Positions 5,466-8,069 of a DNA stretch of 20,000 nt are shown piece by piece. The stretch is taken from the NCBI GenBank assembly GCA_008632985.1, contig QPGO01000024.1:427403-447402 (forward strand), read 5' to 3'. The DNA is from Psammoneis japonica (Eukaryota). The first letter of the stretch is position 1, and the number at the start of each line of letters is the position of its first letter. The notes beneath the pieces are model-generated. The model saw nothing but the letters and a program-made list of their open reading frames with translations, did no database searches and had not been told where the DNA came from. Made by a program: the position numbers and the translations under genes.

Positions 5466-5623
5466 TCACCGTCAGAGGCGACGAGGGCGGCGGCCGGAAA
5501 TCCCCCTTTCGGGCCGCAGCCGCGCTCCGCCCGAGCCGTTTCGCGATCGGCTGAACGGACCTAGGATGGACGCCTCTCGCGCCGGTCGCGGGGGGAACAC
5601 GAGCGGGGCCGGGAGGAGCTTCG

Positions 5624-6372
5624 ATGTTCGCTGTGATTCGCTCGCTCGCCGCGGCCTGCGCAGGCCTCGGCCTGGTCCTCGCCCTGCAGCCCGCGTCCGC
5701 CCAGACGCTCTACGCCGTGGAGGGCTCCGCGCCCGCGCTCTGGGAGTTCACCGGCCCCGGCGACCCCTCGCTCTGCGGCTGCCCCAACGGTCCCGTGATC
5801 GCGACGCTCCATCCTGACCGACCGCGTGTTCGTCACCGACGGCCTGACCATCGCCGTGTGCGACTCGGCCGGCGGCTTCCTCGACAGCTTCCCGAGTCCA
5901 TTCTTCTTCATCGGCGGAGGCTCGACCGTCACGGGCATGGGCTGCGACTCCGTCGGCGGCCTGCTCTGGCTCACCGACGGGACCGCCTGCGGCGCGATGG
6001 TGCTGCCCCCCTCGCCGGGCTGCACGGCCGGGCCGACGACCTTCACCACCGGCCCCTTCACCGGCCCGGTCGGCTTTGGAAGCCTCGATGGCCCCATGCT
6101 TGACATCAAGTGGGACCCCTTCACCTCCTCGCTCTGGGCCTGCAGCGCCACCGGCAAGGTCGGCAACTTCCTGCCGGGGCCCTTCCCGCCGACGCCGGTG
6201 GCCGGCTGCTTTGCCTCCTTCCCGAGCCCCTGCTTCCCGGGTGCCGTGCCGCTGACAGGCCTCGCCCTCGACAAGGGCGTCTCCTCCCCCAGCGTCATGT
6301 GGGTCACGGACGGGACGACGATCGGCTGCGGCATCCCCGGCACCGGCCCCGCTTCGCCGGTCCTGCACGACT
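5624..6372 (+). pseudogene. GC-rich bacterial secreted protein gene remnant with a frameshift/internal deletion near 5800
   Basis: GGAGG at 5612-5616 precedes ATG 5624. Signal peptide MFAVIRSLAAACAGLGLVLALQPASAQ. The frame switches to ...DRVFVTDG...LWLTDG...MWVTDG (repeated propeller-like motifs). Strong G/C third positions. Many likely Tyr sites read Cys/His. Confidence 0.7.
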
Positions 6373-6486
6373 GCCGGCCCCAAAAGCGATTTCCTCCCCA
6401 TGCGTCGGAGGCTCCCGTCTAGACTCAAAAGACTGCCCCGATCGACGACCGCGGAGCACCCTGGGAGAGGGGCCCCCGCTCGACCT

Positions 6487-6512
6487 GGAGGAACCGCACC
6501 ATGACCACTCGC
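6487..6512 (+). promoter_or_regulatory. Orphan bacterial ribosome-binding site and start (GGAGG...ATGACCACTCGC) cut off by a junction
   Basis: GGAGG at 6487-6491 and ATG at 6501 in GC-rich DNA. Composition drops to moderate GC about 12 nt later. Confidence 0.4.
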
Positions 6513-6513
6513 A

Positions 6514-7712
6514 AATGAATGCTGCGGTGTCTTTTTCACTCACCCCAGAGAAAGCATTGCTCATCACTGTGAGCGCAATCCAGATGACCCTCGCATTGCT
6601 CATCAGATGACTCTGGAAGTGGATGAATTTGGCAATGCATTGAAGTCAGTGGCGATCGCCCATCCCCGCAGGACTCCCAAATTTTCCGAACAAAGCCAAC
6701 CTCTGGTTGCTTGTGCAGAAAACAGAGCAACCAATGAACCTGATGAAGATGATTGGTGTCGCCTTGGAGCACCGATAGAAATGATTGCTTGTGAAATTAC
6801 AGGATCACCTGTTGCCAATCTCTGCACCTTAGAGGAAGTCCGAGAACAGTTGGCAAATGCCAGTGTTCTTGCTTGTGGAGCAAATCAGACTGCTGGAGCT
6901 TTACAAAAAAGGACAACGGAGCAGATTGGAAACTGTTGCCGTGCTGACAGTCAGACAAATGGCACAGATCCAGATCGTTCAAACTTGGGTGAAGTAGAAT
7001 CACCAGCTCTTCCTTGTGAAAGCTTCAAGTTGGCCTTTGCTCCTGGGCCAATTAACTCAACATGTGGCAGCAAGATTGGGACTGGGGAATTGAACAATCA
7101 GCTAAGTCAAGAAGGCAAGCATGTTCAACTCGATGGAGATTGGTGGATTCCTTCTGGGCGACAAGCATTCGACCCCGCTCAGTTTTACCTGGTGAGTCAA
7201 ATTAAAGATCCTTTTGAGCAAATTTGTGAAACGACTTGCGATTTTTATAGTTTGTCAACTGCTCAGACAGTCGATCCCCTGGGAAATGCGGTTCGCGTGC
7301 GCAACAATTGCCGAACTCTCCAGCCAGAGGAAATCACTGACCCCAACGGCAATCGCGCTCAAGCGGCTTTTGATGCTCTGGGAATGGTGGCGGGAATGGC
7401 AGCAATGGGTGAAGTGGCACCCTCTCCCCAAGAAGGCGATTCTTTGGAGAGCTTTGCCACAGACCTCACTCAACAACAGATCGATGACTTCTCTCAAAAT
7501 CCTTCATCCGCCGCAAGCACTCTGTCAGGAAATGCCACCACTCAAATAATCTACGATCTAGAAAGGTTTGTCAACACTGGCAAACCTGTCTTTGCAGCTA
7601 CTTAGCCAGAGAAATCCACGTCAGTGACCCAGCAGCAGGAGAGCAGTCTAAAATGCAAGTAAATTTTACTCATTCTGATGGGTTTGGTCGAGAAATGCAG
7701 CAAAAAATCCAG
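6514..7712 (+). pseudogene. Internal fragment of a bacterial Tc toxin B-component (TcdB/TcaC, SpvB-RHS-type) gene
   Basis: The frame opens upstream of the listed ORF: GVFFTHPRESIAHHCERNPDDPRIAHQMTLEVDEFGN. It continues with LPCESFKLAF, WWIPSG and NNCRTLQPEEITDPNGN...FDALGMV. After a 1-nt frameshift at about 7603 it reads AREIHVSD...FTHSDGFGREMQQKIQ. These motifs are recognised from the family. Both ends are truncated. Confidence 0.85.
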
Positions 7713-8069
7713 CATCCTTCCTCCTCCCCCAGGCAACGGCGCAGCCCGGTGAGCTCGGCAGCTTCATCGAGCAGGCTGAGGAGGTCGGCCTGCGGGCCCG
7801 CTTCCTCTCCGGCATCAACCGCATGGGTGAGTTCGGGCCCATGGTGCACTGGTCCCAGTCCGGCATTGCCATCGGCGACCTGGACTCTGACGGGGACCTG
7901 GACGTCGTCACCTGCGGGGGCCTCGCGACCAACCACGTCTTCCTGAACGTCCGGGGGGCGCTTCCACGACGTCACCTCGTTCGCGGGCATCGAGGTGGGC
8001 CAGCTCGATCGCGTCCCTGCGCTCGGAGACTACGACTGGGACGGCGACCTCGACCTCTTCGTCGGCTCG
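7713..8069 (+). pseudogene. GC-rich bacterial FG-GAP/VCBS repeat (CRTAC1/ASPIC-UnbV-like) gene fragment
   Basis: FIEQAEEVGL...IAIGDLDSDGDLDVV...NHVFLN, then a frameshift in the G run at about 7953-7958, then RFHDVTSFAGI...ALGDYDWDGDLDLFVG. Confidence 0.8.

Follow-up and report, generated by a model that had tools for sequence, protein, structure and literature searches.

The window (the whole stretch of 20,000 nucleotides that was analysed) holds open reading frames of the RING, MatE and kinase families (Pfam) and, beside them, three blocks that are depleted of the dinucleotide TpA. At the left edge of the middle block, pieces of bacterial genes follow one another head to tail, without repeats. 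The features of this locus and its surroundings are the following.

4983 to 5465, minus strand: host MatE exon, the end of the first MatE domain, severed at the left junction
5470 to 12250, no strand: TA-eroded domain that holds the mosaic, with 52 TA and an observed/expected ratio (rho) of 0.15
5470 to 5623, plus strand: leader of piece A, GC-rich (0.68-0.73) and of bacterial type, with GGAGG placed 7 nt upstream of the ATG at 5624 (read directly)
5624 to 5803, plus strand: start of the piece A gene, with a signal-peptide-like N-terminus; residues 7-57 of protein P0122 align to 5645-5803 with 43% identity (tblastn)
5814 to 6380, plus strand: continuation of the piece A gene after a change of frame, covering residues ~89-270 of ~405-418 (tblastn 5814-6368, 41-45%)
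6381 to 6504, no strand: piece B, GC-rich (66%) DNA of 124 nt without an assigned source
6505 to 7712, plus strand: piece C, internal cyanobacterial TcB/TcC-type fragment (middle/C-terminal part of TcdB into RHS), cut at both ends
7721 to 8072, plus strand: piece D, 69% GC, from the N-terminal part (~residues 45-161) of an FG-GAP/VCBS repeat protein and frameshifted near 7950
8073 to 12250, no strand: non-bacterial DNA of ~50% GC that shares the erosion (rho of TA 0.11, CA 1.51, TG 1.47)
15983 to 17837, no strand: second GC-rich bacterial island, with the C-terminus of a membrane protein, a PAP2 lipoprotein gene and, on the minus strand, an MBOAT/DltB-like C-terminus

GC content is 0.68-0.73 over 5401-6400, 0.47-0.50 over 6601-7400 and 0.60-0.62 over 7601-8200, with flanks at 0.46-0.51; the contrast between donor types amounts to 72% versus 48%. 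Every gene in pieces A to D is truncated, and tblastn revealed two frameshifts and one internal deletion among them.

Judged by homology, piece A is the upstream region and the first two thirds of a putative secreted protein of ~400 aa that occurs in Planctomycetota. With phmmer, 181 library proteins matched it at E<=1e-3 (best 4e-28, 46% identity). The C-terminal third of the gene is absent, and at ~5804-5813 the tblastn frames indicate a loss of about 30 codons together with a frameshift. Since 5645-5803 (frame 2) and 5814-6368 (frame 3) match the same homologues, with residues 7-57 and 89-270, respectively, the two parts belong to one gene and are not a join between donors. When the loci of the family were sought with a three-sequence alignment, three of 35 candidate stretches were confirmed by tblastn, and all three lie in Planctomycetota MAGs. 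Every look-alike that the atlas gave for the closest homologue is likewise commonest in Planctomycetota, which is a lead only. A related-locus search with P0121 alone returned 70 stretches with none confirmed, and a search by words for homologues of piece A among near lengths gave 278 candidates, none of which scored. In tblastn no homologue reached convincingly into piece B (6381-6504). The "orphan RBS and ATG" of the original prediction do sit there, but the final bases of their short ORF are already Tc homology.

Tc toxin B and C subunits (TcdB/TcaC-TccC) have the architecture SpvB-FG-GAP-TcdB_mid-RHS. Piece C aligns to the middle/C-terminal part of TcdB and the first part of RHS in cyanobacterial TcB-TcC fusions. 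Residues 5-64 of the frame 6505-7602 match Pfam TcdB_toxin_midC (PF12255; E 4.8e-14, 53 bits vs a cut-off of 25), and in tblastn the homologues cover 6505/6508-7602 and 7587/7602-7712, with one frameshift near 7600. The 173 homologues reach 70-73% identity at best. All named matches with at least 46% identity are cyanobacteria (Xenococcus, Waterburya 70%), whereas named matches from elsewhere lie at 35-40%; hence the donor of piece C is, as these matches indicate, a cyanobacterium. The full Tc architecture in one open frame (SpvB, FG-GAP, mid-N, RHS shell, effector) is absent: homologues of 1190-1792 aa align over ~400 residues, and in one example of 1785 aa these are residues 969-1345 and another short stretch. 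Piece C thus covers ~400 of 1400-1900 residues, without SpvB, mid-N and C-terminal effector, and is frameshifted. Most of its conserved tyrosines are substituted. Piece C is a fossil and not a toxin gene.

Piece D was compared with Planctomycetota genomes, the phylum to which this search was confined. Its two parts, 7721-7948 at 48% and 7953-8072 at 63% identity, are collinear over residues 45-161 of Planctomycetota ORFs (tblastn, up to E 4e-16); 81 of the 401 genomes match at E<=1e-3, three of them at <=7.5e-12. Pfam FG-GAP_3 (PF13517) scores 18.8 and 20.7 bits, under the cut-off of 26.9. The homologies therefore support at least two donor lineages, a cyanobacterium for piece C and at least one high-GC bacterium that resembles Planctomycetota for A and D, and the earlier suspicion of a Planctomycetota-like GC-rich donor was borne out as far as it was tested. 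A donor genome of high identity was not found; at the protein level, piece C reaches 73% identity at best, piece A 46% and piece D 48-63%. The junction word from 7712 had no match in metagenome contigs.

On the left the mosaic abuts a host gene. The MatE match extends to 5462 and ends at the composition break, where an AG acceptor is absent. Residues 2-80 of the 4983-5465 ORF correspond to positions 81-159 of the MatE profile (21 bits, below the cut-off of 24.9), and the domain lacks its first ~80 profile positions; the next exon, 4527-4958 on the minus strand, scores 45.6 bits. No minus-strand ORF to the right of 8070 matched MatE. A spliced contig from the data set X2 skips 4514-4597, with CT..AC ends that read GT..AG on the minus strand. 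By this joint X2 resembles a transcript assembly, and its near-zero cover over 5470-8069 (bins 0.44 and 0) was not counted as evidence. The host is probably a diatom, as suggested by one gene family: all three named relatives of the kinase in the window are diatom proteins (best 74%), and no database entry is identical to it. Bigelowiella was considered as the host and is not supported by these matches, since the kinase reaches 73-74% with its best database entry. The idea of a dinoflagellate host was given up in view of the diatom relatives; a spliced-leader motif had no match with up to 3 mismatches, which is uninformative where chance alone would give 1.1.

The patchwork of bacterial DNA inside a eukaryotic chromosome that had been proposed for this locus largely holds, with at least two donor lineages and a host MatE exon cut at 5465-5470. 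Of the six junctions in the original prediction, five stand (5470, ~6375, 6512, 7712 and 8070), although the one at 6512 is better placed at 6505; the junction at ~6375 is supported by the right end of the piece A homology at 6368-6380. The sixth, at 5800, is the deletion within one gene described above. The claimed lack of att sites and target site duplications (TSD) also agrees with our searches: neither these nor terminal inverted repeats (TIR) were found at the junctions, and repeat searches of the whole window (seed 12) and of 5300-12500 (seed 9) gave short imperfect matches only. Rfam at gathering level and ARAGORN returned no RNA family and no tRNA.

The mosaic forms part of a larger domain that is marked by the loss of TpA. 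In the eroded blocks (1-1800, 5470-12250 and 14767-20000) the observed/expected ratio of TA is 0.07-0.17, compared with 0.65-0.66 in the intervening expressed host genes, while CA and TG are at 1.3-1.6 compared with 1.2. Pooled, the eroded blocks contain 102 TA where 726 are expected, and the normal blocks 289 where 445 are expected. TA maps place sharp block edges at ~1800, 5470, 12250 and 14767. At the left edge of the mosaic domain TA occurs at 5438, 5445 and 5451 and then three times across ~950 nt; at the right edge it is dense again from 12251.

The direction of the change can be read from piece C. There, 13 of the 16 conserved tyrosines have become Cys (10) or His (3), whereas 181 of 212 other conserved residues are kept (Fisher p 3.7e-8), and 19 TA are seen vs 81 expected. 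Among the changes in conserved columns, with codons read by eye, ~31 of 44 are of the TA->TG/CA type and 3 of the CpG type; in mismatches to the two nearest homologues the TA->TG/CA type accounts for 39 of 90 and 42 of 107. Piece A has 2 TA (16.2 expected) and piece D has 1 (9.0 expected). In piece A both conserved tyrosines are changed, and Tyr occurs once in 238 aa compared with a family mean of 2.3%. Since Planctomycetota loci are natively TA-poor (rho 0.30-0.57), erosion of these two GC-rich pieces is only weakly shown. The TpA erosion that had been ascribed to all pieces is therefore strong for the Tc piece and weak for A and D. It is common to the mosaic and the adjacent eukaryotic DNA (8073-12250), as had been said, yet it is not a uniform genomic bias but a sharply bounded regional hypermutation: over 5470-12250, both strands had their TpA rewritten to TpG or CpA, and the neighbouring expressed host genes were spared. 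The CpG-type differences are an indirect hint at methylation in the eroded blocks.

These data also bear on the possibility that the locus is an assembly chimera in which reads from co-cultured bacteria were misjoined to a eukaryotic contig. Bacteria were surely present in the culture or sample. The sequencing run X1, which may stem from the sample behind the assembly and is hence not fully independent, differs from the window in 44 of 7130 letters within eroded blocks. One X1 contig (6859-9161) crosses the junctions at 7712 and 8070, another (6458-6858, span inferred) crosses 6505, and a third (5564-6400) covers the internal break of piece A. For the joins at 5470 and ~6380 no bridging contig is among the matches listed, and bin depth alone suggests cover. 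X1 depth is 33-57 inside the mosaic and 53-61 outside, so that the mosaic is single-copy by depth and the three bridged junctions have a depth like that of the flanks; over piece A the depth is lower, at 33. This value would suit a misjoin. However, reduced depth over DNA of 72% GC is an ordinary sequencing bias and could account for it. Misjoined reads would also have to explain why every gene is truncated, why two phyla alternate inside 2.6 kb, and why the Tc piece carries the same tyrosine-destroying signature as the eukaryotic side at 8073-12250. Nor do the fragments match co-cultured bacteria at about 100% identity with intact Tyr codons: the closest database protein is at 73%, and the Tyr codons are eroded. 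We therefore consider a chimera very unlikely.

The eroded domain runs 4.2 kb past the bacterial pieces. In this part (8073-12250) no ORF belongs to a Pfam or NCBIfam family, and for the eroded DNA that is not GC-rich, scans of 85 and 110 ORFs against NCBIfam and Pfam gave no additional family of bacterial, viral or transposon type. An open frame of 581 codons lies at 8816-10558 on the minus strand and encodes 1 Tyr, 24 Cys and 21 His. Dead DNA of this kind retains long open frames because the process makes no in-frame stop and removes TAA and TAG. A large frame of no known family could nevertheless point to a vehicle, i.e. a giant virus, virophage, transposon or plasmid with bacterial genes that makes up the whole block 5470-12250, and the hypermutated regions described in the accessible text of a preprint on Bigelowiella natans are integrated viruses (10.64898/2026.01.13.699255). 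Yet the ORFs of the block contain no viral, transposase or plasmid family (Pfam, NCBIfam), and there are no terminal repeats or TSD at 5470 or 12250. Virus genomes, moreover, do not usually carry gene pieces cut off at both 72% and 48% GC like those found here. A vehicle is thus a highly improbable explanation.

About 8 kb away, another eroded block contains the second bacterial island and transposon-like repeats. The PAP2 lipoprotein gene of the island (Pfam PAP2, 40.3 bits) has an in-frame TGA, and relatives with 45-46% identity were found in 7 of the 401 Planctomycetota genomes. The DltB C-terminus is recognised by NCBIfam with E 6.5e-9 and 1.7e-7, well under the full-length cut-off. In Planctomycetota loci, with ~1.5 kb examined on each side, the PAP2 gene was the only one matched. 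To the right of the island, up to 20000, lie high-copy TIR elements and inverted duplications (repeats I1-I4), and X1 depth across 17343-20000 is 2000-13000. Between repeat copies in 17700-20000, 81 of 90 differences are transitions, 14 of the TA type and 16 of the CpG type; the pairs overlap and are unpolarised.

The second island and the repeats in an eroded block suggest that regions of this kind gather foreign DNA. Possibly, then, the pieces of the mosaic came separately and not as one concatemer, by serial insertion into a tolerated, silenced and hypermutated "graveyard" of heterochromatin. The internal deletion in piece A shows that later rearrangement did occur. On the other hand, no host-type DNA lies between the pieces, possibly excepting the 124 nt of piece B, the ages of the pieces are indistinguishable, since all are eroded near saturation, and mosaics of many donor fragments within one insert are reported, in the accessible part of a study on the diatom Epithemia clementina, for its NUDTs (PMC11383321). 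Serial insertion thus seems unlikely, albeit worth keeping in mind.

The interpretation that we prefer, and think likely, is that 5470-8072 is a non-functional mosaic of bacterial fragments in a nuclear chromosome of a eukaryotic host, which is probably a diatom, and that the mosaic was TpA-hypermutated after its integration. What remains would be the decaying fossil of an uptake of DNA; the mosaic holds no working genes and probably lacks any function of its own. The original prediction had the genes inactivated by mutation after capture; this does not hold, for they were already truncated pieces when they were joined. Since all pieces are truncated gene fragments, they would have been cut before arrival and hence dead on arrival. 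The joins without repeats and the left abutment on a MatE exon cut in mid-domain make end joining the most likely route: loose DNA fragments may have been linked by non-homologous end joining into or at a chromosome break. After integration, a regional process turned TpA into TpG or CpA over 5470-12250, conceivably through a DNA adenine deaminase, the agent proposed for Bigelowiella natans. Read as a whole, the mosaic would quite probably be a record both of DNA uptake and of an editing of non-self DNA that resembles genome defence.

Inference of horizontal gene transfer into algae usually starts from the working genes that survive, and the failures stay invisible. The present locus appears to keep the raw material of a failed transfer, with broken pieces from two or more bacterial phyla in one place. 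It thereby bears on the route by which foreign DNA enters, i.e. as loose fragments through end joining, and on how often it arrives dead. A further practical point is that, in such genomes, a long open frame within a TA-poor block is no evidence of a gene, because the process deletes stop codons and makes no new ones. If the host is a diatom, the TpA process is not peculiar to one chlorarachniophyte. A bolder proposal, which we put forward only tentatively and rather doubt as it stands, is that the TpA-specific DNA-editing defence, measured until now in the rhizarian Bigelowiella natans alone, also works in a diatom-like stramenopile and there marks any incoming non-self DNA, including concatenated bacterial fragments. 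If true, the eroded blocks would archive failed gene transfers across the genome; the alga would take up, concatenate and integrate raw DNA of neighbouring or ingested bacteria in a kind of "natural transformation"; and the editing would be an old and widespread immune mechanism of eukaryotes and a barrier for successful horizontal transfers. Which enzyme edits, how non-self DNA is recognised and how far gene transfer is thereby limited would become questions for tractable diatoms.

Among known systems, fungal RIP is likewise a regional, dinucleotide-specific transition hypermutation of repeated or foreign DNA that spares neighbouring genes. RIP, however, changes CpA to TpA and thus enriches TpA, and it is tied to duplication, whereas the mosaic is single-copy. 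As a candidate for the process at this locus it was rejected: TpA is depleted here, the comparison with homologues gives TA->TG/CA as the direction, and GC rises. The destruction of TpA with a gain in GC implies a chemistry unlike that of RIP, with A or T and not C as the target.

The closest match is Bigelowiella natans. According to the accessible text of the preprint, a TpA-specific hypermutation of integrated viral and other foreign DNA was measured there directly in mutation-accumulation lines and attributed, as a hypothesis, to a DNA adenine deaminase; some TpA-poor clusters have possibly bacterial genes (Mettrop et al., bioRxiv 10.64898/2026.01.13.699255). In both cases blocks of non-host DNA lie beside normally evolving genes, with CpA and TpG enriched. 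Shared, too, is the nearly exclusive change of TpA to TpG or CpA, seen here for both strands and with ~31 of 44 changes at conserved columns of piece C. By the cut-offs given there for 1-kb windows (rho of TpA <=0.43, of CpA+TpG >=1.52), 1-1000, 9001-10000, 11001-12000 and 15001-16000 of our window qualify, if rho of CpA+TpG is taken as the mean of the two. As far as that text goes, there are differences as well. The host here is not shown to be Bigelowiella; the targets there are giant-virus and virophage inserts, here bacterial fragments and DNA of no known family; and a mutation rate was measured there, whereas here the end state alone is seen. The erosion is also far deeper, with rho 0.07-0.17 compared with 0.45 for the NCLDV region. 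In our literature search, which lay mostly outside subscription journals, this preprint was the only report of TpA-destroying hypermutation, and no report concerned a diatom.

The mosaic itself, which has a general likeness to NUMTs and NUPTs, is best compared with the NUDTs of Epithemia clementina, i.e. nuclear integrants of DNA from the diazoplast, a cyanobacterial endosymbiont (PMC11383321). Like the present locus, these comprise many non-adjacent donor fragments in a diatom nucleus, with genes nearly all truncated, decaying and unexpressed. Their donor, however, is the cell's own endosymbiont and 98.4% identical, whereas here at least two free-living phyla contributed and the donors match at 73% or less. 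A TpA signature of the kind seen here is not among the features reported in the accessible part of that study. Hence the mix of donors from several phyla, together with a TpA signature in a diatom-like host, looks new.

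The window is eukaryotic DNA and carries the following host genes:

2213..2944, RING-finger open reading frame (ORF; Pfam scan of ORFs)
4527..4958, minus strand, MatE transporter exon (45.6 bits)
4983..5465, minus strand, MatE transporter exon (21 bits)
12549..14078, protein-kinase/DUF6826 ORF

Contigs of two sequencing runs, X1 and X2, were aligned to the window; X2 behaves like a transcript assembly. Its contigs skip 4514-4597, an intron whose ends (CT..AC) read GT..AG on the minus strand. The kinase has three named relatives, all from diatoms (a Bacillariaceae MAG, 74%; Synedropsis, 43%; Striatella, 40%), and no database entry identical to the window kinase was found. 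Judged by the kinase, one gene family, the host appears diatom-like. X1 and X2 contigs both join across 12858-13341 (482 nt) and 13367-13791 (423 nt) of the kinase ORF. The ends of these joins (CA..AG and AA..AT) are not intron-like; the contigs may come from paralogous copies or a shorter allele of the kinase family.

Next to the MatE exons lies a mosaic of bacterial gene pieces:

5470..~6380, piece A, secreted-protein gene
6381..6504, piece B, GC-rich, 124 nt, not assigned to a source
6505..7712, piece C, Tc (TcB/TcC-type toxin) fragment
7721..8072, piece D, FG-GAP/VCBS-type fragment

The GC content is 68-73% over 5401-6400, 47-50% over 6601-7400 and 60-62% over 7601-8200, with flanks of 46-51%. 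The pieces are bacterial fragments from at least two lineages lying in eukaryotic DNA, and every one of them is broken. The original reading of the region as a scrapyard stands.

Piece A has a bacterial-type leader (GGAGG 7 bases 5' of the ATG at 5624) and a signal-peptide-like start. A word-based search with this piece found no relative. At E<=1e-3, exhaustive phmmer returned 181 proteins, with 33 reaching <=1e-10 and the best 4e-28 (46% identity); the top matches are mostly about 400 aa long, and none of the four homologues scanned had a Pfam domain. In tblastn, the homologues match 5645-5803 in frame 2 with residues 7-57 and 5814-6368 in frame 3 with residues 89-270. Since both frames match the same proteins, the junction predicted at about 5800 is a break within one gene, which has lost about 30 codons and changed frame there and also lacks its final third. 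The other five of the six predicted junctions (about 5470, 6375, 6512, 7712 and 8070) hold. An earlier single-protein scan for relatives of piece A had found none; with one genome per prokaryotic species, three of 35 candidate stretches were confirmed, all three in Planctomycetota MAGs. As a lead only, the clusters that a language-model atlas lists for the closest homologue are all ones in which Planctomycetota are commonest.

Piece C matches TcdB_toxin_midC (E 4.8e-14) and aligns with about 400 internal residues of TcB-TcC-type proteins of 1190-1792 aa. It has a frameshift near 7600, where X1 shows a one-letter length difference. The best of its 173 homologues are 71-73% identical. All named matches at 46% or more are cyanobacterial (Xenococcus and Waterburya 70%, Tolypothrix 53%, Snowella 52%, Nostoc 46%), whereas those outside the cyanobacteria reach 35-40% at most. 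Piece D matches Planctomycetota FG-GAP/VCBS-type ORFs (residues ~45-161) at 48% over 7721-7948 and at 63% over 7953-8072, and the frame shifts between these stretches; its Pfam FG-GAP_3 matches fall under the threshold. Of 401 sampled Planctomycetota genomes, 81 have a match at E<=1e-3, and in three of them E is <=7.5e-12. As the genomes searched were those of Planctomycetota, piece D appears compatible with an origin there, not exclusive to it. Together with the relatives of piece A, this sustains the Planctomycetota-like donor that had been proposed on impression.

The left junction is well supported by the sequence itself. Covering positions 81-159 of 161, the match to the MatE profile reaches base 5462 and ends at the composition change; the first 80 profile positions are missing, no AG acceptor lies ahead of the exon end, and no MatE match was found to the right of 8070. 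One X1 contig (6859-9161) crosses the joins at 7712 and 8070, another (5564-6400) covers the internal break of piece A, and a contig at 6458-6858 crossing 6505 is implied by the end distances of three listed differences. For the joins at 5470 and ~6380 there is no bridging X1 contig among the matches listed, so these two joins count as probable. X1 depth is 33-57 within the mosaic compared with 53-61 in the flanks. X1 may be the sample behind the window assembly, yet it is not letter-identical to the window. The stop of the MatE match and the contigs crossing 6505, 7712 and 8070 support genuine integration, as had been argued. Searches for direct and inverted repeats paired none of the junctions, in agreement with the original observation that they share none.

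In the whole window TA occurs at 0.34 of expectation, with CA and TG in excess, and the deficit is not uniform. Three sharp-edged eroded blocks (1-1800, 5470-12250 and 14767-20000) have a TA rho of 0.07-0.17, with 102 TA against 726 expected, whereas the two normal blocks (1801-5469 and 12251-14766) have 0.65-0.66, with 289 against 445. The normal blocks carry the RING, MatE and kinase genes, parts of which are covered by the transcript-like X2 contigs. Piece C reveals the direction of the change, TA to TG or CA. Compared with 12 homologues, it has kept tyrosine in three of 16 conserved-Tyr columns and has Cys in ten and His in three; of its other conserved residues 181 of 212 are kept (Fisher p 3.7e-8 versus Tyr). 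The frequent non-Tyr changes are of the same type: Leu to Ser or Pro, Val to Ala, Thr to Ala after a codon ending in T, and Lys to Glu after T. With codons read by eye, about 31 of 44 changes in conserved columns are of this type and three are CpG-type. Set against its two nearest homologues, piece C has 90 and 107 mismatches, of which 39 and 42 are of the TA type; going by these counts, the donor was perhaps 82-85% identical to them before erosion.

In pieces A and D, low TA (2 against 16.2 and 1 against 9.0 expected) is weak evidence of erosion, because Planctomycetota loci examined as a control are natively TA-poor (rho 0.30-0.57). Erosion of the GC-rich pieces finds support in the change of both conserved tyrosines and in the composition of 238 residues, which include 1 Tyr and 11 Cys (family means 2.3% and 1.9%). 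A bounded TA-destroying signature is common to the pieces and to 4.2 kb of adjoining non-bacterial DNA, and the TpA erosion originally noticed is real. Surviving TA is preceded by A in 9% of cases in eroded blocks (n=102) and in 31% in normal blocks (both strands; p ~2e-11, rounded counts), so ATA/TAT seems to be the most susceptible context. This bias suggests that the editing process favours certain neighbouring bases. The TTA/TAA context accounts for 42% of surviving TA in eroded and 24% in normal blocks.

Changes from TA to TG or CA cannot create an in-frame stop, and they remove TAA and TAG. Hence a long open frame in eroded DNA is no sign of a working gene. The minus-strand frame 8816-10558, in eroded non-bacterial DNA, is open for 581 codons with 1 Tyr, 24 Cys and 21 His, contains a Gly/Ser-rich 51-nt tandem repeat (9936-10112) and matched no family of Pfam or NCBIfam. 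The frame is probably that of a dead gene, open because erosion makes no stop codons. Where the first eroded block ends on the right, X1 depth is about 265 over 1335-2001 compared with about 60 nearby, which indicates a moderately repeated element ending there.

A second bacterial island (island 2, 15983-17837; GC 64-71%) contains:

within 15983..17837, membrane-protein C-terminus
within 15983..17837, PAP2 lipoprotein gene (Pfam PAP2 40.3 bits) with an in-frame TGA at 17234..17236
within 15983..17837, minus strand, MBOAT/DltB-like C-terminus

Relatives of the PAP2 gene occur in seven of 401 Planctomycetota genomes (45-46%), where both gene halves are contiguous. An element of about 550 bp with inverted ends of the type GACGTGTTCCAG...CTGGAACACGTC (copies at 17801-18352, 18705-19252 and 19663-20000; X1 depth 2000-13000, i.e. 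high-copy) sits in the MBOAT-like fragment and interrupts and duplicates island 2. With inverted duplications of 649 nt and 455 nt (96-98% complementary) it forms a palindromic structure. If the assembly is right there, a host repeat has colonised island 2, which adds to the evidence that bacterial DNA of this sort is a resident part of the chromosome.

Over 1-16413, the window differs from X1 at 44 of 7130 letters in eroded blocks and at 3 of 5019 in normal blocks, i.e. about 10 times more densely (p 1e-7). Among the 40 differences listed, 30 are CpG<->TpG/CpA and three involve TA. Be they real mutations or base-calling errors linked to methylation, these differences hint at CpG methylation in the eroded blocks.

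The most likely course is that non-homologous end joining linked free pieces of DNA, from bacteria living nearby or ingested, at a break in the chromosome that would have cost the MatE gene its 5' part. Recognition of the domain as foreign, and its editing, would have followed. The original prediction was largely right in its observation and partly right in its interpretation, of which end joining is a step that we infer as well. For the erosion, regional hypermutation is the more fitting description, and a process of this kind has just been reported from another alga, Bigelowiella natans. In its mutation-accumulation lines, two viral regions integrated in the genome are described as mutating about 1000-fold faster than the remaining genome; TpA-poor, CpA- and TpG-rich clusters elsewhere are enriched in foreign-type genes, and the proposed agent is an ADAT2-like adenine deaminase (10.64898/2026.01.13.699255). 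No other report of a TpA-destroying process, in diatoms or elsewhere, was found in the full-text literature searched, whose coverage is incomplete. The signature in the window is of the same kind as that of Bigelowiella natans and deeper in degree. For the architecture of the mosaic, a parallel is offered by Epithemia clementina, where nuclear inserts of endosymbiont DNA are reported to be each composed of 8-42 distal donor fragments and 98.4% identical to their source, while 121 of the 124 genes or gene fragments in them have lost more than 30% of their length and most inserts are apparently non-functional (PMC11383321).
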